DNA of 64,000 nt from positions 14,427-78,426 of the forward strand of contig CAJMLO010000001.1 of the NCBI GenBank assembly GCA_905214245.1, given 5' to 3'. How positions within the stretch are numbered: position 1 is the stretch's first letter; each line of letters starts with the position of its first letter. This document shows positions 4,705 through 56,912 of this stretch, one piece after another. Origin of the DNA: an uncultured bacterium (lineage in GTDB: Bacteria > Bacillota > Clostridia > TANB77 > CAG-508). The position numbers and the translations under genes are program-made. A model generated the notes under the pieces. It searched no databases. It had not been told where the DNA came from and worked only from the letters and a program-made list of their open reading frames with translations.

Positions 4705-4782
4705 ATATTTTACATTATTAGTATACCAATTTATTCAAAAATTTACAACATATTTTAGAAATTTTATTATTCAAGTATTACT

Positions 4783-4826
4783 AGATAATATTGCAAGTTT
4801 CTAAGAAATATTATATCGCTTATGCT
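4783..4826. repeat. core-less copy of the same repeat family (the AT-rich termini plus the gcaagtttctaag box only)
   Basis: ataatatt-gcaagtttctaagaaatattatatcgcttatgcta is 34/36 identical to the right end of copy B but lacks the GC-rich core. It lies between fmt and the Asp23 operon. Confidence 0.55.
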
Positions 4827-4828
4827 AA

Positions 4829-5815
4829 TTATTCGAATAAATTTCCTGCATCTATATGATTTCCACGTAAAAAATCATTCACATTCATTCTCTTAGAATT
4901 CTCTGCTTGAACCTCTTTTGCACTAATTATTCCATCTTGTCCTTTTATGAATAAACCTTTTTTATCATCAGAAAATAAAACTGTTCCAGGCATTAGTTCT
5001 TTCATTTTATATGAATATTCCTTTAATTCTGGAAATATCTCCATTAGCTCATTTTCATCTAAAATATCAACTTTCCAGAATTTAATTTTCTTTCCATCTA
5101 AAAAGCTATATGCTCCCATGATAGGATTTAATCCTCTTACAAGATTTTTTATTTTAGATACACTCATATCTTCCCATTCAATTTTAGCCATTTGCTTATC
5201 AAGCATAGGTGCCATTGTAAAGTCTGGGCCTTGTTTCTCTCTTGGAGCTTCTCCTTTTTCAATTGCCTCAAGTGTTTTAACAAGTAAGTCTGCTCCAATA
5301 TCAGAAAGTTTATCCCATAGCTCTCCTGTTGTTTCATCTTCGCCTATCTCAACTTCTCTTTTTAAAATCATATCTCCTGTATCCATTCCAGCATCCATAT
5401 ACATTGTAGTAATTCCTGTTGTCTTATCCCCATTAAGTACTGCCCACTGTATTGGAGCTGCTCCACGATATTTTGGAAGTAAAGAGCCATGTACATTTAT
5501 ACATCCCATTTTAGGAATATCTAAAAGTTCTTTTGGAAGTATTTTTCCATATGCAACAACACATATAACATCAGGATTTAAACTTTTAATCTCATTAATA
5601 AATTCTTCATTATTTCTTATCTTTTCAGGCTGATAAATAGGTAAACTTTTCTCTAAAGCAAATTCTTTAACAGGTGTAGGAATCATTTTCATTCCTCTAC
5701 CTTTTGGCTTATCTACATTTGTAACAACACCTAAAATTTCATAACCTGCATCATATACTTTTTCCAAAGATTTTCTTGCAAAATCTGGTGTTCCCATAAA
5801 AACAATTTTAAGCAT
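4829..5815 (-). CDS. fmt: methionyl-tRNA formyltransferase
   Basis: MLKIVFMGTPDFA N-terminus, NVHGSLLPKYRGAAPIQWA formyltransferase core and a C-terminal domain. The def-fmt gene order is conserved. Confidence 0.9.
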   Translation of the reverse strand: MLKIVFMGTPDFARKSLEKVYDAGYEILGVVTNVDKPKGRGMKMIPTPVKEFALEKSLPIYQPEKIRNNEEFINEIKSLNPDVICVVAYGKILPKELLDIPKMGCINVHGSLLPKYRGAAPIQWAVLNGDKTTGITTMYMDAGMDTGDMILKREVEIGEDETTGELWDKLSDIGADLLVKTLEAIEKGEAPREKQGPDFTMAPMLDKQMAKIEWEDMSVSKIKNLVRGLNPIMGAYSFLDGKKIKFWKVDILDENELMEIFPELKEYSYKMKELMPGTVLFSDDKKGLFIKGQDGIISAKEVQAENSKRMNVNDFLRGNHIDAGNLFE

Positions 5816-12022: not shown

Positions 12023-12128
12023 ATTTGATATATCTATTATATCATAAATTTTTATAGTTTCAAGTGGTACCTTTTGATGAAACTTACCTCAGATACCAGA
12101 CAGCTGTTTATGCTGGTATATTACATCA

Positions 12129-12884
12129 CTAGGATTCGAACTCGTACATAATATTACTTGTTATTGCAATTGGTGCTGTTTCTGTTCTAAGTATCCTACT
12201 TCCAAGTGTAATTATTTTCGCACCACATAATTTAAGCTCATCTATTTCTTGCTTATCAATTCCACCTTCAGGGCCAATTACAACTCCTATTTTACTACTT
12301 TCTTTTTCTAAAATTTTATCTTTATTTGCTTGCAATATTTGCTTTAATGTAACTTCTTTTTCCTCTTCATATGCTACGATAAATAAATCAAATTTTTCAA
12401 TTTCTTCTTTTAACTTATTTATTGTTATTACATTTTTTACATTTGGAATCATATCTCTTCCAGATTGTTTTGAAGCAACCTCTGCAATCTTTTGCCATCT
12501 TTCTATTTTCTTTGCTTCATCTTTTCCATTTAATTTTACAATACATCTTTTTAAAGCAACAGGTATAAATTCCACAGCTCCAAGTTCTGTGCATTTTTGT
12601 ATTATATATTCCATTTTATCTGCTTTTGGAAGTCCCTGAAATATACTTACTTTTACCTTGCTTTCAACTTGCTTTGCAATTTCATTTTCAATTTTACATA
12701 CTACTTTTTCTTTCAATATTTCTTCAATTTTAGAATTATATGTAATACTATTTTGTTTATCACATACTAAAATATAATCATCTTTTTTTAGTCTAAGTAC
12801 ATTTGTTATATGATTTACATCTTCTCCTGTAATTGATATTCTGCTACCTTCAATTTGATTATCATCTACAAAAAATTTTGGCAT
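12129..12884 (-). CDS. rsmE: 16S rRNA (uracil1498-N3)-methyltransferase
   Basis: An N-terminal PUA-like domain and a C-terminal SPOUT knot (GPEGGIDKQEIDELK...LGSRILRTETAPIA). Confidence 0.85.
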   Translation of the reverse strand: MPKFFVDDNQIEGSRISITGEDVNHITNVLRLKKDDYILVCDKQNSITYNSKIEEILKEKVVCKIENEIAKQVESKVKVSIFQGLPKADKMEYIIQKCTELGAVEFIPVALKRCIVKLNGKDEAKKIERWQKIAEVASKQSGRDMIPNVKNVITINKLKEEIEKFDLFIVAYEEEKEVTLKQILQANKDKILEKESSKIGVVIGPEGGIDKQEIDELKLCGAKIITLGSRILRTETAPIAITSNIMYEFES

Positions 12885-15350: not shown

Positions 15351-17234
15351 TTATTCAAAATTACTTTTATACAAATCTCTTCTTTCTCTTGCAAGTCCAG
15401 ATAAAAATGCTCTTCTTACTGCTACTAATTTATCTTTGTCATATAATAGCTTTCCTGTAGAATAATCACGTATCTGTCCTGAAATTATGCTATCTATATC
15501 ATAATCTCCAGATGCATTTACAATGCAATTATAGCACCCTGTTGTAAGTTTTCCTACTCTTGATTGAGGATAGAAGTATCTTGATTGAACCTCACTGACC
15601 TTAACAGTTTGTCTCTCAAAGCTAAGAGATGTATATGCTATTATTGATAAATTTGGATTATTTTTTTGCTTTTCTATAAGTTCTTTGCATCCAGGTTGAT
15701 GATATTCAAAATTTCCATCATCATTTTGAACTACAAGATAAATTGATTGTTCATTAATTACTTCTTCATTTTTAGTATTTGTTATAACAACATAATTATT
15801 AAAATATTTGTGTCCAATTGGCATTCCTTGCATAAACGAAATAAGTGAAACATTATTTACAATTTTATACCAATTTTCGTCATCAATTACAGGCATTACA
15901 AATTCGTATGTATTTCCACTTTGCTTATTATAATTTGCAATTGCTGTCGTCAAATTTGTTTCGATTGATTTTCGTATAACTGCCATTCTATGAACATTAA
16001 ATGTTGAACTAGACATTAACGGATCATTTCCTGTTTTCGTAGTATCAAAAATATAAGGTGTATTTCCTTCTATATTGTTTGTGTCAACAGATAAATAAAT
16101 ATCTCCATTAGATTTATATGCACCTATTGTTCCATCATTTTGGATAATTCCAGACTGTGTAACAGATGCAAGTCCACTCTCTTCTACAACCCATTTACTA
16201 AACTCATATGCTTTAGTATAATATTCATATGCACTTATGCTTTTATATCCTATCTTATTCACAAGTCTATTATTTGAATCTAATCTAAGTAAATTATTGT
16301 CAGTTAAATATTTTATAAAATTAACTCTGTCACCTTGTAAATATGTTTTTTTATAATTATCATACCAGAAAAACTTAGGTGCTGCAATTGCTCTATATCT
16401 TATATTTCCGTTTCCATCATATAATGCTCTTCCATTTGAATCATAAAGTGGAATTTGAACTGTTTCGTATACAGGCTGTCCCTGCGAATTAACATCTTGA
16501 TAAACCTTTTTATTGTTGTAAACAATATATGGATAATCTCCTTGACTTGGCTCAGTATTATCATCAATAATTGTTATTAAATGTTCTTTTAAACTTTCTG
16601 GCAATATTGTAACACCATCATATGTTAGAGTTTTACTTTCTGAATTAATATTTTGGACTTTTTGATAATTAATTAAATAACCTGACCTTGTTTCATATCC
16701 ATTTCCAAAATCTCCATAAAAAGTAATAGCATTGTCCAAAGTATAATTTGCAATTATTGTTTTTCCCGTTGATAATCTATATTGGCATGAATAATAAATA
16801 TAAGGTCTTAGCCCTTTTTGATAATTGCGATTGTCAGCTATTTCGACCTTATCACTACTTGAGGAATAAACATTATCATATGAGCTATAAATATAATATC
16901 CATCATATAATGTAAATAACATTGCTGGAATATATGATGATAAATCATCTTTTGACGAAATATAATCATTCATAGCTGTTCCAAGTGAATTATAAAACGT
17001 ATTTACAGATGCTTCTATATCCCTTATTTTTGAATCACTTAAGCTTGAATATTTATTATTTGCAGAGTTAATCTGAAAAGCCTTTAGTGCATCAGATGTC
17101 GCTGTATTTAAGCTTGTCGTGTATGCTGTTTGTAATTGTATTGTACTAATTTGAGTATTAACATATTCTGTAAGTACCATAGAAATAGGAATTATAATTA
17201 GTACAAATATAACTGCTAAATGTTGTAGTTTCAT
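15351..17234 (-). CDS. large secreted/N-terminally anchored protein at the distal end of the pilin-like gene cluster (candidate pilus-associated or TadG-like protein)
   Basis: 627 aa with a single N-terminal TM segment. It is rich in S/T/N/Y and has no recognised catalytic motif. It is assigned by position downstream of the pilin-like operon. Confidence 0.45.
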   Translation of the reverse strand: MKLQHLAVIFVLIIIPISMVLTEYVNTQISTIQLQTAYTTSLNTATSDALKAFQINSANNKYSSLSDSKIRDIEASVNTFYNSLGTAMNDYISSKDDLSSYIPAMLFTLYDGYYIYSSYDNVYSSSSDKVEIADNRNYQKGLRPYIYYSCQYRLSTGKTIIANYTLDNAITFYGDFGNGYETRSGYLINYQKVQNINSESKTLTYDGVTILPESLKEHLITIIDDNTEPSQGDYPYIVYNNKKVYQDVNSQGQPVYETVQIPLYDSNGRALYDGNGNIRYRAIAAPKFFWYDNYKKTYLQGDRVNFIKYLTDNNLLRLDSNNRLVNKIGYKSISAYEYYTKAYEFSKWVVEESGLASVTQSGIIQNDGTIGAYKSNGDIYLSVDTNNIEGNTPYIFDTTKTGNDPLMSSSTFNVHRMAVIRKSIETNLTTAIANYNKQSGNTYEFVMPVIDDENWYKIVNNVSLISFMQGMPIGHKYFNNYVVITNTKNEEVINEQSIYLVVQNDDGNFEYHQPGCKELIEKQKNNPNLSIIAYTSLSFERQTVKVSEVQSRYFYPQSRVGKLTTGCYNCIVNASGDYDIDSIISGQIRDYSTGKLLYDKDKLVAVRRAFLSGLARERRDLYKSNFE

Positions 17235-17394
17235 ATTTTTTACCTTTCTTTTGTCTACACATTAGAACAAAGCAACTTTAATTCGCCCTTTGTCCAAAAC
17301 CAATTTGAATTTTCTACTAAAAGAAGAAAATTTCAAAGACAATGGAGATTGTAGCATTTTATATACTAAGAAATTTCTCATTTTCTAGTATATA

Positions 17395-17425
17395 AAACAA
17401 AGAGGGAAGAAATGATTTCTACCCC
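17395..17425 (-). terminator. putative terminator hairpin after the pilin-like operon
   Basis: gggaagaaa/tttctaccc stem with one mismatch and a 3-nt loop, followed on the minus strand by a T-rich tract. It lies between 17444 and the 627-aa gene. Confidence 0.35.
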
Positions 17426-17443
17426 CTTTTATGTACTGCGTTT

Positions 17444-17977
17444 TTATTTACTATTTGTGCTACCATTTACTGTAACAACTCCTGAATGTTGTGCTTCAAT
17501 TTGGTAAGTATCATCTCCTGAAACCATGTAGAAAAAGTTTCTTAATAATTGTGCAATCGTTTGATTCGTGTTTCTTACTGTAACTGACACAATATCTCCT
17601 TCTTTTAAAGTAATTCTTCCTTTAGAATTTAATTTTTCTTCAACCTGTGATGTGTACATATTATAATATACATTTTCACCTATTTTTGTAGTTTCCGCTT
17701 GAGTTGTTTTTACTCCTGGGTTTTCATCAAGCTGTTGAATCAAAATATCTGTTTCAAATGAATTACCTGTCGCAACAATTGTATTGATATATTTTTGGTA
17801 ATCATCTAAAGTAAGCTTTCCAGTTGTCTTTATTCTATCTACAAATTCTGTTGTAGCTGTTTGTACAGCTAATTGCGAAATATTGTCTGTTCTTTCTGAT
17901 AATGACATCAGTGGAAACACAAACATTAAAATTGCTGCTAAAAAAATTGCTATAACTGTAATTAAACTATCTCCCAT
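17444..17977 (-). CDS. pilin-like N-terminally anchored protein (candidate minor pilin/TadE-like)
   Basis: 177 aa with a hydrophobic N-terminal segment MGDSLITVIAIFLAAILMFVFPLM followed by a soluble domain. It is the last gene of the Tad-like operon. Confidence 0.45.
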   Translation of the reverse strand: MGDSLITVIAIFLAAILMFVFPLMSLSERTDNISQLAVQTATTEFVDRIKTTGKLTLDDYQKYINTIVATGNSFETDILIQQLDENPGVKTTQAETTKIGENVYYNMYTSQVEEKLNSKGRITLKEGDIVSVTVRNTNQTIAQLLRNFFYMVSGDDTYQIEAQHSGVVTVNGSTNSK

Positions 17978-17991
17978 TTTATTCCTCCTAT

Positions 17992-18651
17992 TTAATTATG
18001 CAAAGTATATATAATTACTCTTTTCTTTCTATTCTTAATTAATCCAGAATCATAATTTCCATCAGTTGCTTCACTATTATCTGCATTATATACATATTCG
18101 CCAAGGCTTTCAGTAAATTTTCGATTTTTATATTTATATAATCCTTCTCCAAAATTTATAGTCTGTACTCCTCTGCTATCTGTATATATATAGTTTCCTC
18201 CCTGAATAAATATATCTAGCATTCTTTTGTTTTCTGTTTCGCTACCTGTCCAAGGTTCATGCCTTCTTGTTTCTTCATTTACATCAAAAGAACAAACCTT
18301 TGTATTTTTACCACCATAATATCTATTTGTAAATCCTGCACTCCATAAATCCGTATTTGTCTTTGTTTCATATAAAGATAAATAACTGCCTGAGGCATTT
18401 CTAAATATTACAGTGTAGTTTTCTTTATAGTATTTGTACAATGTTGGAATAATAGTTTCAAGCCCTACAATTCTATTTTCTGAGCCTTCTTCTGGTTCTA
18501 TATATTCCATATATGATGACATATCCGAGCTATGTAAAACCAAATCAGCGGTTTGTCTCGCATTTGAAAACATATACATTGTAAGGGATAATGCCATAGC
18601 AAAAACTAAAACAGCAAACCCTATTTTTAATGCGTCAACTGCATTTTCCAT
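17992..18651 (-). CDS. pilin-like protein, divergent member of the MENA-leader family
   Basis: N-terminus MENAVDALKIGFAVLVFAMALSL is related to the conserved MENASKALI N-terminus of the three upstream paralogues. Confidence 0.45.
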   Translation of the reverse strand: MENAVDALKIGFAVLVFAMALSLTMYMFSNARQTADLVLHSSDMSSYMEYIEPEEGSENRIVGLETIIPTLYKYYKENYTVIFRNASGSYLSLYETKTNTDLWSAGFTNRYYGGKNTKVCSFDVNEETRRHEPWTGSETENKRMLDIFIQGGNYIYTDSRGVQTINFGEGLYKYKNRKFTESLGEYVYNADNSEATDGNYDSGLIKNRKKRVIIYTLHN

Positions 18652-31680: not shown

Positions 31681-33739
<2,059 letters not shown>

Positions 33740-33741
33740 TA

Positions 33742-33770
33742 TTTATATACCTATTAATAAAAAAAGTCAA
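33742..33770 (-). promoter_or_regulatory. sigma-A-type promoter of groES-groEL
   Basis: On the minus strand, TTGACT then 17 nt then TATAAA, immediately upstream of the CIRCE-like element. Confidence 0.45.
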
Positions 33771-33839
33771 TACATAAATGTAATTTTCACATATTTTTCA
33801 CATTATTTATAATTTACTTATGGTATAAGTTTTATATTA

Positions 33840-33978
33840 GTGTAAGCAATATAATATTTCTTAGAAACTTGCCGTTCGCAGCCAATCAAAATTGATTGAC
33901 GGCTGCTCGAATCGCACTCAGCCTTCGGCTTCGTTTGGTCGCTGCGCGTTTCCTTGAAATATTATATTGTGCTTACAC
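33840..33978. repeat. GC-rich structured repeat (~135 bp) with AT-rich terminal inverted repeats, copy A
   Basis: Terminal inverted repeats agtgtaagcaatataatatttc and gaaatattatattgtgcttacac flank an ~80-nt GC-rich core. The core contains a gccUUCGggc-type hairpin and nested palindromes. It is highly similar to the reverse complement of 53961..54092. Confidence 0.7.
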
Positions 33979-34094
33979 GTCTTTTATAAAACAGTATCCA
34001 GTAATGACTCCTTAGCAATTTAGCACATCATATATTGATTAATTTATAAAAAATGTGATATATTAGTAGCATCAAACAAAAAGGAGGAAAATTT

Positions 34095-34805
34095 ATGTCA
34101 ATACACTGCAATGCCAATATCGGTGATATAGAAAAAACTGTTTTAATGCCAGGTGATCCGCTTCGTGCAAAATATATAGCAGAGAATTTTTTAGAAAATG
34201 CAAAACTTGTAAATACCGTAAGGAATATGCTTGCATATACTGGAACATATAAAGGAAAAAAAGTAACTGTATTTTCATCTGGAATGGGAATGCCAAGCAT
34301 GGGAATTTATTCATATGAATTATTTAAATTTTACGGAGTTGAAAGAATTATTCGTATAGGTTCGTGTGGAGCATATAATGAGGATTTAAATTTATTTGAT
34401 ACAATTTTAGTAGATAAATCTTATACAGAGGCAAATTTTGCACACTCTTGGGATGAACAAGATTGTCACATTGCCGAGGCAAGTAAAGAATTAAATGATA
34501 AGATTGAAGAAACAGCAAAGAAAATTAATATTCCGTATATAAAAGGAAATACTCTATGTAATGAATGTTTTGATGGATATTTAGACGATATAGAAAGCTT
34601 TATAAATCGTTTTCCAAAAGATTTGAATATTATAGCTTGTGAAATGGAAGCTTTTGCTCTATTTTATATGGCAAAATATTTTGGAAAAGAAGCATCTTGT
34701 CTACTTACTGTAGTTGATTCTCACTATAAAAATCAAGAAAGTACTTCTGAAGAAAGAGAAAAATCATTAAATGATATGATTAAACTTGCTTTAGAAAGCA
34801 TTTAA
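34095..34805 (+). CDS. deoD: purine nucleoside phosphorylase, DeoD type
   Basis: 236 aa with PNP/UDP phosphorylase family motifs (VLMPGDPLRAKYIAE, SSGMGMPS, RIGSCG). Confidence 0.85.
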   Translation: MSIHCNANIGDIEKTVLMPGDPLRAKYIAENFLENAKLVNTVRNMLAYTGTYKGKKVTVFSSGMGMPSMGIYSYELFKFYGVERIIRIGSCGAYNEDLNLFDTILVDKSYTEANFAHSWDEQDCHIAEASKELNDKIEETAKKINIPYIKGNTLCNECFDGYLDDIESFINRFPKDLNIIACEMEAFALFYMAKYFGKEASCLLTVVDSHYKNQESTSEEREKSLNDMIKLALESI

Positions 34806-40631: not shown

Positions 40632-40799
40632 TACGAAAATCGAATACTGTCGAAGAAAGTCGAAATATTTTTCTTGACTTAATTCTTTAATTAGTATATT
40701 ATTACAGTATGTATTTTAAACATATACGTATATAATGAGTTATTAGTATAACTTATTATATTATAGGCTGATATGAACATTTCATTATGGAGGATGTTC

Positions 40800-41291
40800 A
40801 TGAAAAAACTTAATATTTTATCAAAGATTTTTGTTGTAGCAGTTCTTGCACTAAGTATTAACATTACATCATTTGCTGCAGAAGCAGATAATAATAGTAG
40901 CAACACATATGTTGCAAGTAATGTTTTACTTAATGATACTCTTTCTGCTCGCAGTTACAAATCTGTTTTGGATTATACTAATTCAAATTTCCGTATGGAA
41001 ATAAATGATAAAGCTTTCAAGCCTTCATTTAGCAGCAACAATACAAGAATTATCGTTGCTGCCAAAAATCTTGATACTTCATCAGTTGGTACAATTCGAG
41101 TAGACGTGTACAAAAAGACTGGAATTCTAAACATAAAAACAAAAGTAATTTCTTTTGAATGCAAAGCAGATGGTTCAAGCCATACAAGCAATAGTTTTGC
41201 AATTACAAAAGGTTCTAACTATGTTGTAGATATTACATCTTCAAATAGTTTTAAGCACGTACTTGCAGTAAATATTGTAGCACAGCAATAA
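40800..41291 (+). CDS. secreted hypothetical protein (signal peptide, 164 aa from MKKLNIL)
   Basis: Signal peptide ending in an AEA cleavage-like site, then a beta-rich mature region. The gene is flanked by 13-bp inverted repeats. Confidence 0.5.
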   Translation: MKKLNILSKIFVVAVLALSINITSFAAEADNNSSNTYVASNVLLNDTLSARSYKSVLDYTNSNFRMEINDKAFKPSFSSNNTRIIVAAKNLDTSSVGTIRVDVYKKTGILNIKTKVISFECKADGSSHTSNSFAITKGSNYVVDITSSNSFKHVLAVNIVAQQ

Positions 41292-41318
41292 CTTTTACTA
41301 CGTTCATATCAGCCAAAC

Positions 41319-41344
41319 TTGCTTGCTCATTTTTGAGCAAGCAA
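41319..41344. terminator. stable hairpin (11-bp perfect stem ttgcttgctca/tgagcaagcaa) after the 40800..41291 gene
   Basis: Perfect inverted repeat with a 4-nt loop. The downstream T-tract is weak, so a terminator function is uncertain. Confidence 0.35.
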
Positions 41345-41370
41345 ACATTATAAATAAACGGAGGAAAATT

Positions 41371-41991
41371 ATGAAAAAATCAACTAAAATTCTATTATTA
41401 GTAATATTCTTACTAATCCTATCTTTTTCAATTTATTTTATACTTAATCAAAACAATACTCATTCCCTTGCATTTGTAAAAAAAGTAAATCAATATTCTA
41501 AAAATCAAACTAATTATTCTGCTGTTATCAGCAAAAATATTGACAACACAAATTTTATCGAAAATATTATCTTTAATAACGGTATTAAAAAAATAATATA
41601 TAAAACAGGTGATAATATAACAGATATTAGATGGATAACTTCAGATAAAATAATAAGCGAGTATTCTAAAATCTACGTTGATAGTTCGTTTGTACCAAGT
41701 GATCTTGATACTTTAGACATATATCTTTCTGGAAATTATACATATAAATTTTTAAGAGAAGAGAATTATAATAATTCCAAATGTATTGTTTCTGAATTTA
41801 CAAATAAAAATTCATCTGAAAAAACTGTAGTATGGATTGATATTGAAAGGAAATTACTTGTTAAACAAGAAATTTATGATAACAATAATCAACTAACTCA
41901 ATCAGTTACATATAATATAACGCTAAATAATGTAACTAGTGAAGATGTTAAATTACCTGATTTAACAAATTACACTTACAAAAAGCAATAG
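41371..41991 (+). CDS. N-terminally anchored hypothetical protein (206 aa from MKKSTKILLLVIFLL)
   Basis: A GGAGG RBS lies 8 nt upstream of the internal ATG. One TM segment, then an N/Y/K-rich domain. Confidence 0.5.
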   Translation: MKKSTKILLLVIFLLILSFSIYFILNQNNTHSLAFVKKVNQYSKNQTNYSAVISKNIDNTNFIENIIFNNGIKKIIYKTGDNITDIRWITSDKIISEYSKIYVDSSFVPSDLDTLDIYLSGNYTYKFLREENYNNSKCIVSEFTNKNSSEKTVVWIDIERKLLVKQEIYDNNNQLTQSVTYNITLNNVTSEDVKLPDLTNYTYKKQ

Positions 41992-42134
41992 TAAACTTGC
42001 TGAATAATGATTTCTAGATATTGCTTATGCCTTCATAAACTATTTTAAAAGATAACTATTTTCAAAATATAGTTGTCTTTTTTTATTTGTTTCGTTATAA
42101 TAACAAGGTACACAAAAATAAGGAGGAATTTGAA

Positions 42135-53747: not shown

Positions 53748-53960
53748 TGTAGATTACCTCCTTTTAATTTTTGATTTTAATTTTTCTTGACACATTGTCT
53801 TTTATACTTTTTAAGGAAAAAAGGAAATAGTCTACAAAATAATTAAATTCATTTAAACTTTTTTTCAAAGTCTACTAAATTATATCACAACATATTCACT
53901 TGTCAATATATAAAATTCTAAAATTTACCATTTAAAGTCATTAGATAACAGTTTTAAAGT

Positions 53961-54092
53961 CATAAGTGGTATAATATTTCAAGGAAACGCGCAGCGACCA
54001 AACGAACGTTAGTGAGTGCGATTCGAGCAGCCTTCAATCCTTTGGGATTGGCTGCGAACAGCAAGTTTCTAAGAAATATTATATCACTTATG
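53961..54092. repeat. GC-rich structured repeat with AT-rich terminal inverted repeats, copy B (inverted relative to copy A)
   Basis: cataagtggtataatatttc then a GC-rich core then gcaagtttctaagaaatattatatcacttatg. The core is about 85% identical to the reverse complement of 33874..33955, with a compensatory change in the inner hairpin (caatcAAAATTgattg versus caatcCTTTGGgattg). Confidence 0.7.
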
Positions 54093-54118
54093 CTAGTATA
54101 AATCTTAAAACTATTATC

Positions 54119-55447
54119 CTAGTACCCAATTTTTTTAGCAATTAAATCATATTCTTTTACATCTGTTATTGTGCATTTTACAAAGCTTCCTATTTGTATT
54201 TCCTCATCACTTTCTATATACACAACTCCATCTATTTCCGGAACATCCATATAGCTTCTTCCTATATATGTTTTTCCATCAAAAGATTTATCCTCTACAA
54301 GAACTTCTACTTCTTTTCCAATTTTATTTTTCAAATTTTGTTTTGATATTTTTTGTTGCAAACTCATAATTTTATTCAATCTGCTCTTTTTGGTCATAGG
54401 ATGAATTTGTTCTTTTAGTCTTGAAGCAGGTGTTCCATCTTCTTTTGAATATGCGAAACAACCTAATTTATCAAATTTAGCCTCTTGTAAAAATTCATAT
54501 AATTCTTCAAAATCCGCTTCTGACTCTCCAGGAAATCCTACCATAACAGTTGTACGAATAATTACTTCTGGAATTTCCTGTCTTAATTTTTTTATAAGAT
54601 TTCGTATACTTTCTCCATTACTTTGTCTGTTCATTCTTTTAAGTACAGAATCAGATATATGTTGAATTGGTATATCAAAGTATTTACATACCTTATCATT
54701 ACTTTTTACAACTTGTATAAGTTCATCATTTATTGTTTCAGGATATGCATATAAAAATCTAATCCATTTTATTTCTTTAATTTTGCTTATTTCTTCTATA
54801 AGCTTTGCAAGTCTTGGCCTTCCATATATATCAATTCCATATTTTGTAGTATCTTGAGCAGTTAAAATTATCTCATGATATCCTTCTTCTGCAAGTTTTT
54901 TAGCCTCCTCTATTATGTCTTCCATTTTTCTACTCATTTGAGGACCACGTATATATGGAATTGCACAATATGTACATCTATTACTACAGCCATCCGCAAT
55001 TTTCAAATATGCAAAGTTATCTCCTGTAGTAAGCACTCTATCCATCAAGTTCAAAAATTCTCTGTTTGATGGATTATCTGTATCTTCTATATCCTCATTT
55101 TCAAGCATTTTCTTTACTTTATCCCATAGACTATCATATTCGCTATATTTAATCCACAAATCAACCTCTGGTATCTCTTTTGCAAGTTCATCCCTATATC
55201 TTTCTACCAAACATCCCATTGCAATTAAAAATTTACATTTATCTTTTTTGTATTCAGCCATCTCTAAAATTGTATTTATTGCCTCTTCTTTTGCAGACTC
55301 TATAAATCCACACGTATTAATTACAATAATATCCGCATTTTCTGGCTTATTTACTATTTCAAAACCTTCTTCATTAAATATTGCTATTGTTTTTTCTGTA
55401 TCTACTAAATTTTTGTTACATCCTAGTGATATAAATCCTACTTTCAT
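54119..55447 (-). CDS. rimO: ribosomal protein S12 methylthiotransferase RimO
   Basis: N-terminus MKVGFISLGCNKNLVDTE is the RimO-type MTTase start. Radical SAM motif CSNRCTYCAIP and a C-terminal TRAM domain. Confidence 0.85.
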   Translation of the reverse strand: MKVGFISLGCNKNLVDTEKTIAIFNEEGFEIVNKPENADIIVINTCGFIESAKEEAINTILEMAEYKKDKCKFLIAMGCLVERYRDELAKEIPEVDLWIKYSEYDSLWDKVKKMLENEDIEDTDNPSNREFLNLMDRVLTTGDNFAYLKIADGCSNRCTYCAIPYIRGPQMSRKMEDIIEEAKKLAEEGYHEIILTAQDTTKYGIDIYGRPRLAKLIEEISKIKEIKWIRFLYAYPETINDELIQVVKSNDKVCKYFDIPIQHISDSVLKRMNRQSNGESIRNLIKKLRQEIPEVIIRTTVMVGFPGESEADFEELYEFLQEAKFDKLGCFAYSKEDGTPASRLKEQIHPMTKKSRLNKIMSLQQKISKQNLKNKIGKEVEVLVEDKSFDGKTYIGRSYMDVPEIDGVVYIESDEEIQIGSFVKCTITDVKEYDLIAKKIGY

Positions 55448-56727: not shown

Positions 56728-56912
56728 TTTCGCTTTCCCTTCTTTTGATTAAATTAACATATATATTTTACCAATACTAGACATAAAAGTCAATGCTAGA
56801 AAAAGTCATAATTTTCCTTATGATTTGTATTGCAATTAAGTCTTTTATAGTATAAAATATGGTAATAGAAATGTATTTACACGATAGCAAATGAAAGGAC
56901 TGATAGTCTATT

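Follow-up and report, generated by a model that had tools for sequence, protein, structure and literature searches.

What is the GC-rich repeat that lies between the divergent groES and deoD promoters of this uncultured Clostridia bacterium: a small structured RNA, a mobile element, or some combination of the two? A first-pass annotation of the window (the whole stretch of 64,000 nucleotides analysed here) placed the repeat at 33840–33978 on the plus strand and a second, reverse-complemented copy at 53961–54092 on the minus strand. Both copies do lie at these coordinates, in opposite orientation and with 87% column identity. Very probably, they belong to a new family of non-autonomous DNA transposons (MITEs) of ~176–197 bp each. 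This MITE is active or recently active in an uncultured lineage of spore-forming gut Clostridia that is common in human metagenomes. Below, loci and contigs other than the window are given as L numbers.

Boundaries and anatomy of the element

When 21 copies are aligned together with their flanks, homology runs ~27–35 bp past the inverted repeats by which the element was initially delimited; the original span covers the inner hairpin only, and the element is ~27 bp longer on each side. The 21–23-bp repeats described as terminal are real, but they are inner repeats, in which 33840–33860 pairs with 33956–33978 with a 2-nt bulge. The terminal inverted repeats of the unit are 14 bp long, 5'-GTTACTRGATAATG...CATTATCCAGTAAC-3'. 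The best-preserved copies end in 5'-GTTACT(A/G)GATAATG...CATTATCCAGTAAC-3' and the others, including copies 1 and 2 of the window, have degenerate termini. Read from its ends towards the middle, the unit begins with the terminal repeat and continues with an A/T-rich segment whose pairing is imperfect. Next come a stem of ~21 bp without mismatches (P1), a 3-nt internal loop and a 5-bp stem (P2, GAAAC/GTTTC), which enclose an asymmetric core of ~79 nt with ~55% GC. P1 is made up of an outer segment of ~10 bp (P1var), which differs in most copies (GCATAAGCGA, GCGGAATCAA, GTGTAAGCAA and others) with its complementarity kept, and an inner segment of 11 bp (P1cons, TATAATATTTC). The contrast in base composition is genuine but was overstated at 60% GC against a background of 27%; the 88-nt span that includes the 79-nt core has 54.5% GC, compared with 28.9% for the window. 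The features in the window are as follows.

33813–34005, plus strand: copy 1, full unit, 193 bp (bounds from alignment to copies with intact termini and duplications)
33813–33839, plus strand: left outer flank of copy 1, with a degenerate terminal inverted repeat and the A/T-rich imperfectly paired segment, homologous to GTTACTAGATAATGATTTTAAGATTTATATT elsewhere
33840–33860, plus strand: P1 5' arm of copy 1, GTGTAAGCAA (variable, covarying) and TATAATATTTC (conserved)
33864–33868, plus strand: P2 5' arm of copy 1, GAAAC, covarying with its partner arm
33869–33947, plus strand: GC-rich core of copy 1, 79 nt, with the GCAGCC...GGCTGC hairpin, GGCTGCTCGAATCGCACTC, the optional AGCCTTCGGCT hairpin and CGCTGCGCG
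33948–33952, plus strand: P2 3' arm of copy 1, GTTTC
33956–33978, plus strand: P1 3' arm of copy 1, GAAATATTATA and TTGTGCTTACAC
33979–34005, plus strand: right outer flank of copy 1, with the terminal inverted repeat at its end (...CAGTATCCAGTAAT), homologous to CCTACAAAAAACATTATCCAGTAAC elsewhere
53938–54125, minus strand: copy 2, full unit, 188 bp (inner hairpin 53961–54092, core 53989–54064)
4777–4829, minus strand: copy 3, internally deleted, in which the terminal repeat ATTACTAGATAATA directly abuts what is left of the core (its last bases) with a single P2 arm and a single P1 arm (GCAAGTTTCTAAGAAATATTATATCGCTTATGC)
42000–42046, plus strand: core-less remnant, a fusion of the left outer flank CTGAATAATGATTTCTAGATATT with a single P1 arm and the right flank GCTTATGCCTTCATAAACTATTTT
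56878–56884, no strand: unoccupied site, at which the MAG CAKOPZ01 (see below) has a divergent family member (L026:1335–1469, termed L026a) that is missing from the window

The truncated copy 3, which was found by a repeat scan of the window, and the remnant at 42000–42046 had escaped the original count of two; at the remnant locus, the MAG holds a full copy (L013:589–720). Two words of the core, the 19-mer GGCTGCTCGAATCGCACTC (33901–33919 in copy 1) and the 22-mer CGTTTGGTCGCTGCGCGTTTCC, each occur exactly twice in the window and are absent from shuffled sequence. Copy 1, between the groES and deoD promoters, has degenerate termini (TTTACT...AGTAAT) and its target-site duplication is not preserved. 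Copy 2 starts at the 3' end of a gene for a MiaB-like radical-SAM/TRAM protein, whose TAG stop codon (54119–54121) falls inside the terminal inverted repeat, and it lies upstream of the promoter of a gene for a 52-aa zinc-ribbon protein. The MAG allele of the MiaB-like gene ends instead at TAA, one codon earlier. The element has no coding capacity, and no open reading frame spans copy 1. Among the 21 copies, L017 alone has a reading frame across it, a mechanical listing of 96 codons that is not taken as a gene.

Copy number, host and distribution

A scan for the exact 19-mer in one genome per species (185,579 species representatives) returned 19 distinct copies, all of them in a single MAG, CAKOPZ01, which is labelled 'uncultured Clostridia bacterium' and comes from a Hadza gut sample. 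The remaining matches are single chance occurrences in high-GC genomes. A search with an HMM of the copies through 128 kb of MAG loci and the window (~190 kb in total) brought up no additional full copies, so that the 19-mer can be regarded as effectively invariant. A metagenome scan added 11 further human-gut contigs of the same lineage. There were no matches to the element in viral contigs, a plasmid collection or a phage collection, which speaks against an origin in a phage or plasmid. Three sister lineages (GroEL 88–92% identical), in which ~60 kb was searched, have no copy. The host species is itself common, its exact GroES protein occurring in 445 blocks of the assembly collection, and it is a spore former, as judged from its SpoVA, SpoIIID, YunB and SipL genes. 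As far as can be seen, the MITE family is confined to this one species of gut Clostridia.

Evidence for mobility

Perfect 8-bp direct repeats are present exactly outside the GTTACT...AGTRAC termini in four copies:

L010: duplication TTCAAAAT, unit of 197 bp
L012: duplication TTTTGAAG, unit of 195 bp
L027: duplication ATTATATT, unit of 194 bp
L020: duplication GCAAAATT, unit of 176 bp

A recognizable duplication is kept in only these 4 of ~21 copies; most older copies, copy 1 among them, have lost theirs. Duplication of 8 bp of the target on insertion points to an enzyme that acts in trans and makes staggered cuts, that is, a DDE-type transposase. The relative L084 provides an empty site, GCAAATTTTATTTGCAA, with a single 8-mer at the place where L027 reads GCAA-ATTATATT-(194 bp)-ATTATATT-TGCAA. 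A search of the window and of 19 of the fetched loci, among them all 16 MAG loci, brought up no other element that has these termini.

Copy 1 is identical or nearly so (one substitution in L048) in seven of ten other strains; in the other three, the segment is replaced by different DNA, and a clean empty site for copy 1 was found in none of them, since strains that lack the copy carry other DNA. Orthologues of copy 2 occur in the MAG (L026:4266–4398) and in eight independent strain contigs, where L062 and L055 come from the same contig. In L067, the copy 2 allele is core-less, and P1cons, P2, the core and one arm have been lost between short TATAA repeats; the remnant at 42000–42046 has the same type of junction at an independent locus. 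With copy 3 (4777–4829), this brings to three or more the loci at which the core has been deleted. Comparison of strains thus reveals polymorphism by presence or absence, by deletion and by inversion, in addition to one empty site in a relative. Together with the terminal repeats, the 8-bp duplications in four copies and the 19 copies in one MAG, it bears out the earlier suggestion of a MITE-like mobile element.

The inversion concerns L036:897–1045 and L021:5598–5751, which have collinear flanks and between which the whole element is inverted, with 92% identity over 154 nt; the variable stem segment differs at ~5 positions per arm. Inversion at this locus might be taken to mean that the arms are recombinase sites between which the core is flipped to switch neighbouring genes on or off. 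Perfect inverted repeats of 21–23 bp around ~95 bp in a gut bacterium would suit such an inverton, as would the opposite orientations of one locus in two genomes and the unexpected combinations of arms in some metagenome contigs. It is nevertheless extremely improbable. The core has a single orientation relative to its asymmetric flanks, in seven of seven strain contigs for copy 1 and in all eight independent contigs plus the MAG for copy 2. The inversion in L036 takes in the outer flanks, so that it is the whole element that is turned and not the core between its arms. Moreover, the core has no promoter, and the odd contigs, with ~1.3–1.7x coverage, may be assembly chimeras. Among these low-coverage contigs, L031, L039, L042 and L044 have the left arm and flank of one locus joined to the right arm and flank of another; such joins are evidently short-read mis-assemblies, unless they are real recombinants. 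Contigs L028, L029, L040, L041 and L081–83 stop inside the element.

Other kinds of repeat were also considered. An integron attC array, a retron msr-msd and a CRISPR are ruled out by the dispersed copies in both orientations and the target duplications, and the gene tables contain no integrase, reverse transcriptase or cas gene linked to the element. Resemblances of TATAATATTTCTTAGAAA to a Xer/dif-type site, of GATAATG...CATTATC to Fur-box halves and of UCGAAUC to a tRNA T-loop were dropped, each being a short AT-rich or partial match that is without the defining architecture.

Stem covariation and the invariant core

The arms of the stem change in concert. In an alignment of 24 copies, 13 of the 24 pairs of P1 and P2 change on both sides (48 cells); not one of 500 shuffles reaches 13 pairs, and slid controls give 2–5. 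Within P2, covariation is seen as GATACC/GGTATC in L009 and as GCACC/GGTGC in L011 and L026a. The arms of L009 have diverged by ~38% from the consensus and are still perfectly paired (21 + 5 bp), with a core that is ~96% identical; L011 and L026a have a compensated 1-nt insertion in the stem and a nearly unchanged core. The compensatory change in the inner stem that had been noticed between the two window copies is confirmed, with CAATCAA/TTGATTG in copy 1 becoming CAATCC/GGATTG in copy 2. On both strands and for both copies, folding is far better than that of shuffled sequence (z = -5.9 to -8.2). Selection on secondary structure, as initially argued, is therefore supported for the long outer stem by its 13 double-changed pairs, although such covariation could also arise at the level of DNA, through correction of one arm templated by the hairpin and through exchange between copies by gene conversion.

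By comparison with the stem, the core is nearly invariant. Its differences among the 24 copies are limited to hairpin loops and two alternative modules, one of which is an optional hairpin (AGCCTTCGGCT) or CTAACGT, and the other a small loop that reads GCGCG or CAAGCG. The modules differ between orthologous alleles (MAG L026b and window copy 2; L027 and L076), and the combinations are mixed. This swapping of modules between orthologous alleles, in several combinations, indicates gene conversion among the copies. The 24-copy alignment has no double changes in core pairs, for the reason that the core varies so little. Core helices proposed by RNAalifold were rejected; they lack double changes throughout, and the lower one is disrupted by one of the variant modules. 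The hairpin described earlier as gcc-UUCG-ggc with a tetraloop is in fact AGCC-UUC-GGCU, a 4-bp stem with a triloop. Copy 2 and several others have the unstructured CTAACGT in its place, which means that the hairpin is dispensable.

RNA, promoter and terminator signals

If the element were a known RNA, a match to a covariance model might be expected. Rfam 15, applied to the whole window at the gathering threshold, gives no match, and at E<=10 the region 33700–34100 gives chance-level matches only (P26, 16.2 bits against a gathering value of 36; atpB, 12 bits against 37.4). A sub-threshold match to Clostridium-PBP RNA at 34050–34097 on the plus strand (27.7 bits; gathering value 94.4) covers the deoD leader; it consists mostly of the Shine–Dalgarno region and is probably not meaningful. 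No tRNA or tmRNA was called in the window.

The possibility remains to be weighed that the copies are independent sRNA genes, in which a TATAAT in one arm would drive a trans-acting RNA of ~100 nt comprising P2 and the core. A perfect TATAAT does face inward in both arms, ~7 nt before P2, and in some copies it is preceded by TG, giving an extended -10. The GC-richness of the core, in a genome rich in AT, recalls stable RNAs, and the divergent promoters on either side of copy 1 should leave it outside both neighbouring mRNAs. However, there is no consistent -35 box in either orientation, and neither window copy has an intrinsic terminator on either strand, there being no U tract after the hairpin; the 3' flanks of the copies are A-rich or mixed. 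L009 is without TATAAT and has kept its pairing. An RNA that starts from TATAAT would miss the 5' arm of P1, leaving the covariation of P1 unexplained, and promoters in both arms would yield fully complementary RNAs. The copies, moreover, are dispensable. Such a gene family is improbable, and a small structured RNA remains a suggestion only, there being no Rfam match, no consistent promoter or terminator and no covariation in the core. The missing U tract also rules out an intrinsic (Rho-independent) terminator or a SPRITE-like repeat.

Strand preference and orientation

The two strands of the element are not equivalent. Transition mismatches in P1 and P2 are nearly all A.C on the plus strand (that of the 19-mer), which corresponds to G.U on the minus strand. 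G.U mismatches favour the minus strand by 20 cells to 4, or roughly 11 independent events to 1, and the minus strand is the more stable in 19 of 22 copies, by a mean of 3 kcal/mol. The alleles of copy 2 illustrate such a series on the minus strand, with C-G in the MAG and L065, then U.G in L034, then U-A in L064 and the window.

Symmetric ends would lead one to expect insertion in both orientations. Copies that lie between tandem genes are co-oriented with them in 10 of 11 cases, or in 12 of 13 if the 52-aa zinc-ribbon gene is counted. Location in promoter regions, which had been remarked on for the two window copies, is not specific: 14 of 21 copies follow a gene of the same orientation, 10–96 nt past its stop codon, and divergent promoter regions contain six, among them window copy 1. 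A replication-strand cause of the orientation bias was considered and set aside, as local GC skew is uninformative and confounded by the coding strand. The stem mismatches thus favour folding of the strand that is antisense to the neighbouring genes. Pairing kept on the minus strand, set against co-orientation of the plus strand with genes, speaks against selection that acts simply on hairpins of read-through transcripts.

These observations bear on whether the host makes use of the element. The MITE might be the vehicle of an RNA module acting in cis within 3' untranslated or intercistronic regions, as an RNase III site, an mRNA stabilizer or a protein-binding domain, with host purifying selection acting on the core. 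The near invariance of the core and inner stem, the covarying stems and the restriction of variation to predicted loops and one optional hairpin would all fit, as would the position of the 14 copies downstream of co-oriented genes. Some copies precede a gene's terminator (L018, L022, L024) or lie between operon genes (L011), and the perfect duplexes of 21–23 bp are long enough for RNase III, for which Correia elements are a precedent. Yet the mRNA would be the plus strand, and the mismatches preserve pairing on the minus strand. The core has been lost at three or more loci in healthy lineages, copies are missing from sister lineages and polymorphic among strains, and module swaps set orthologous cores further apart than their flanks. 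Nor does the core show covariation or belong to an Rfam family. We regard a host-used module as possible, if rather unlikely. Nothing in these data establishes a host function of the GC-rich core, and its recurrent loss at three loci argues against an essential one.

A model for the spread of the element

We return to the reading of the family as MITEs. Insertion duplicates 8 bp of the target and would be catalysed by a putative DDE-type transposase acting in trans; the hairpin and core are repeatedly deleted between short direct repeats. Ongoing exchange of sequence between copies by gene conversion may help the centre to stay uniform, and the arms may stay complementary because a single strand must fold. 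The need to fold could reflect selection on a transposition intermediate or an RNA intermediate, or else hairpin-templated correction of the DNA; correction of this kind in quasipalindromes can keep arms complementary. Transcripts that read through from upstream genes would contain the element as a long RNA hairpin, with a possible effect on the processing of the mRNA, by analogy with Correia, ERIC and bcr1.

Some features are not accommodated by this scheme. A classical MITE is most strongly conserved at its terminal repeats. In this family, conservation is far stronger in the centre (TATAATATTTC, P2 and the core) than at the ends, which a plain DDE model would not lead one to expect. Neither gene conversion nor hairpin correction explains why TATAATATTTC is fixed beside an adjacent 10 bp that is free to vary. 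The strand-specific wobble pairs and the greater stability of the minus strand lie outside every step of the MITE model. It is conceivable, and on balance unlikely, that the centre and the fixed inner stem form an undescribed structured module of RNA or single-stranded DNA that is needed in cis, either as a non-coding RNA motif spread by the MITE or for mobility that depends on a folded, strand-specific, single-stranded intermediate and not on the terminal-repeat sequence. A cis-required module of this sort would jointly explain the conserved centre, the covarying stem, the strand-specific wobbles and the orientation bias.

Relation to known repeats

A core between terminal repeats, duplication of the target and long stem-loops in RNA are typical of bacterial MITEs (PMC3184786). 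The present family shares these features, with small units (under ~400 bp), many intergenic copies and polymorphism among strains. Among bacterial MITEs, bcr1 of the Bacillus cereus group (~155 bp, bcr group A) is alike in that it occurs in a low-GC Firmicute, is dispersed between genes with a non-conserved distribution among strains, has short flanking direct repeats and no coding capacity, and has a stable predicted structure kept by compensatory changes (PMC3184786). The two have no sequence similarity, the present element being one long hairpin capped by a GC-rich core; furthermore, bcr1 is known to be transcribed. The Correia or nemis elements of Neisseria (MITEs of ~104–157 bp) share terminal repeats around a core, an intergenic or gene-proximal location, a long RNA hairpin and polymorphism between strains (PMC3184786). 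In Correia, however, it is the 26-bp terminal repeats that are conserved, and in the present family it is the centre, with a duplication of 8 bp and no promoter found. Correia elements have the target duplication TA and carry promoters and an IHF site, and their hairpins are cleaved by RNase III in co-transcribed mRNAs. Likewise, ERIC/IRU of enterobacteria and RUP of Streptococcus pneumoniae are MITEs in the form of small imperfect palindromes (107–127 bp), which lie in transcribed DNA between genes and can fold into long stem-loops (PMC3184786). They differ in sequence, host and target duplication, and none has a GC-rich, asymmetric, invariant centre in AT-rich arms.

The REPIN/REP-RAYT system offers a different comparison. 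REPINs are hairpin-forming doublets of repeats in which the whole hairpin is the evolving unit and its single-stranded state the presumed mobile form; their arms (REP) are conserved and their loop is variable, they make no target duplication and they depend on the RAYT (IS200/IS605-like) enzyme. The pattern is reversed here, with arms that vary, a centre that is conserved and 8-bp duplications. A palindromic element of the REPIN or IS200/IS605 type is ruled out by the terminal repeats, the 8-bp duplications and the variable arms.

Neighbouring loci

A number of observations were made on the surroundings of the copies. On the minus strand, a TTGACT-17-TATAAA promoter of groES-groEL is followed downstream by a CIRCE-like operator, TTAGCAATC-N9-GACTGCTAA (33712–33738 and ~33743–33771); with both present, the groES-groEL heat-shock promoter is intact and lies between groES and the element. 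Strains differ markedly at the groES-deoD spacer (window 33800–34030), a variation hot spot. In place of the element, L049:1035–3000 and L050:1692–3000 encode prepilin-type secreted proteins (N-terminal GITLIALVVTIVVL) of 426 and 255 aa, and L051:2628–3000 has an unrelated segment of 134 nt.

At 40632–41991 there is a 1.36-kb insertion with two small genes (163 aa, no Pfam match; 206 aa, TP_0789-like), which is bounded by a 12-bp direct repeat, AAAAAGCAATAG, and is present, partial or absent among strains. Near spoIIID, L061:16760–20408 contains a mobile insertion encoding Mob_Pre, HTH_36 and DUF6076 proteins, and L059, L060, L065, L066 and L068 (~16670–18130) have an extra gene of 433–484 aa, without a Pfam match, between spoIIID and the 52-aa zf_Tbcl gene. 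Another small repeat with a palindrome, GTGGTACTTTTTGAAGG...CCTTCAAAAAGTACCAC, is terminator-like and occurs at ~12064–12160 of the window, L012:5841–6080 and L014:5851. In L012, the element is inserted into the 3' arm of this palindrome. At the place of the palindrome, the window has a string like a tRNA T-arm, GGATTCGAACTCGTAC, with no tRNA called.

Significance

The element has practical consequences. Metagenome assemblies are broken or wrongly joined at its copies; the copies change the 3' ends of genes, as where a stop codon comes from the terminal repeat in copy 2; and they mark hot spots of strain-level variation. Selfish MITE repeats that form hairpins are known; what is unusual in this family is a near-invariant GC-rich centre held in a variable stem that nevertheless remains paired. 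The combination of that centre with a hypervariable, always-paired stem segment and strand-asymmetric wobbles amounts to an unusual anatomy. It makes the element a tractable case in which selection at the level of RNA can be set against hairpin correction and gene conversion at the level of DNA as the process behind 'compensatory' change. If the centre is functional, the family would represent a mobile structured nucleic-acid module.
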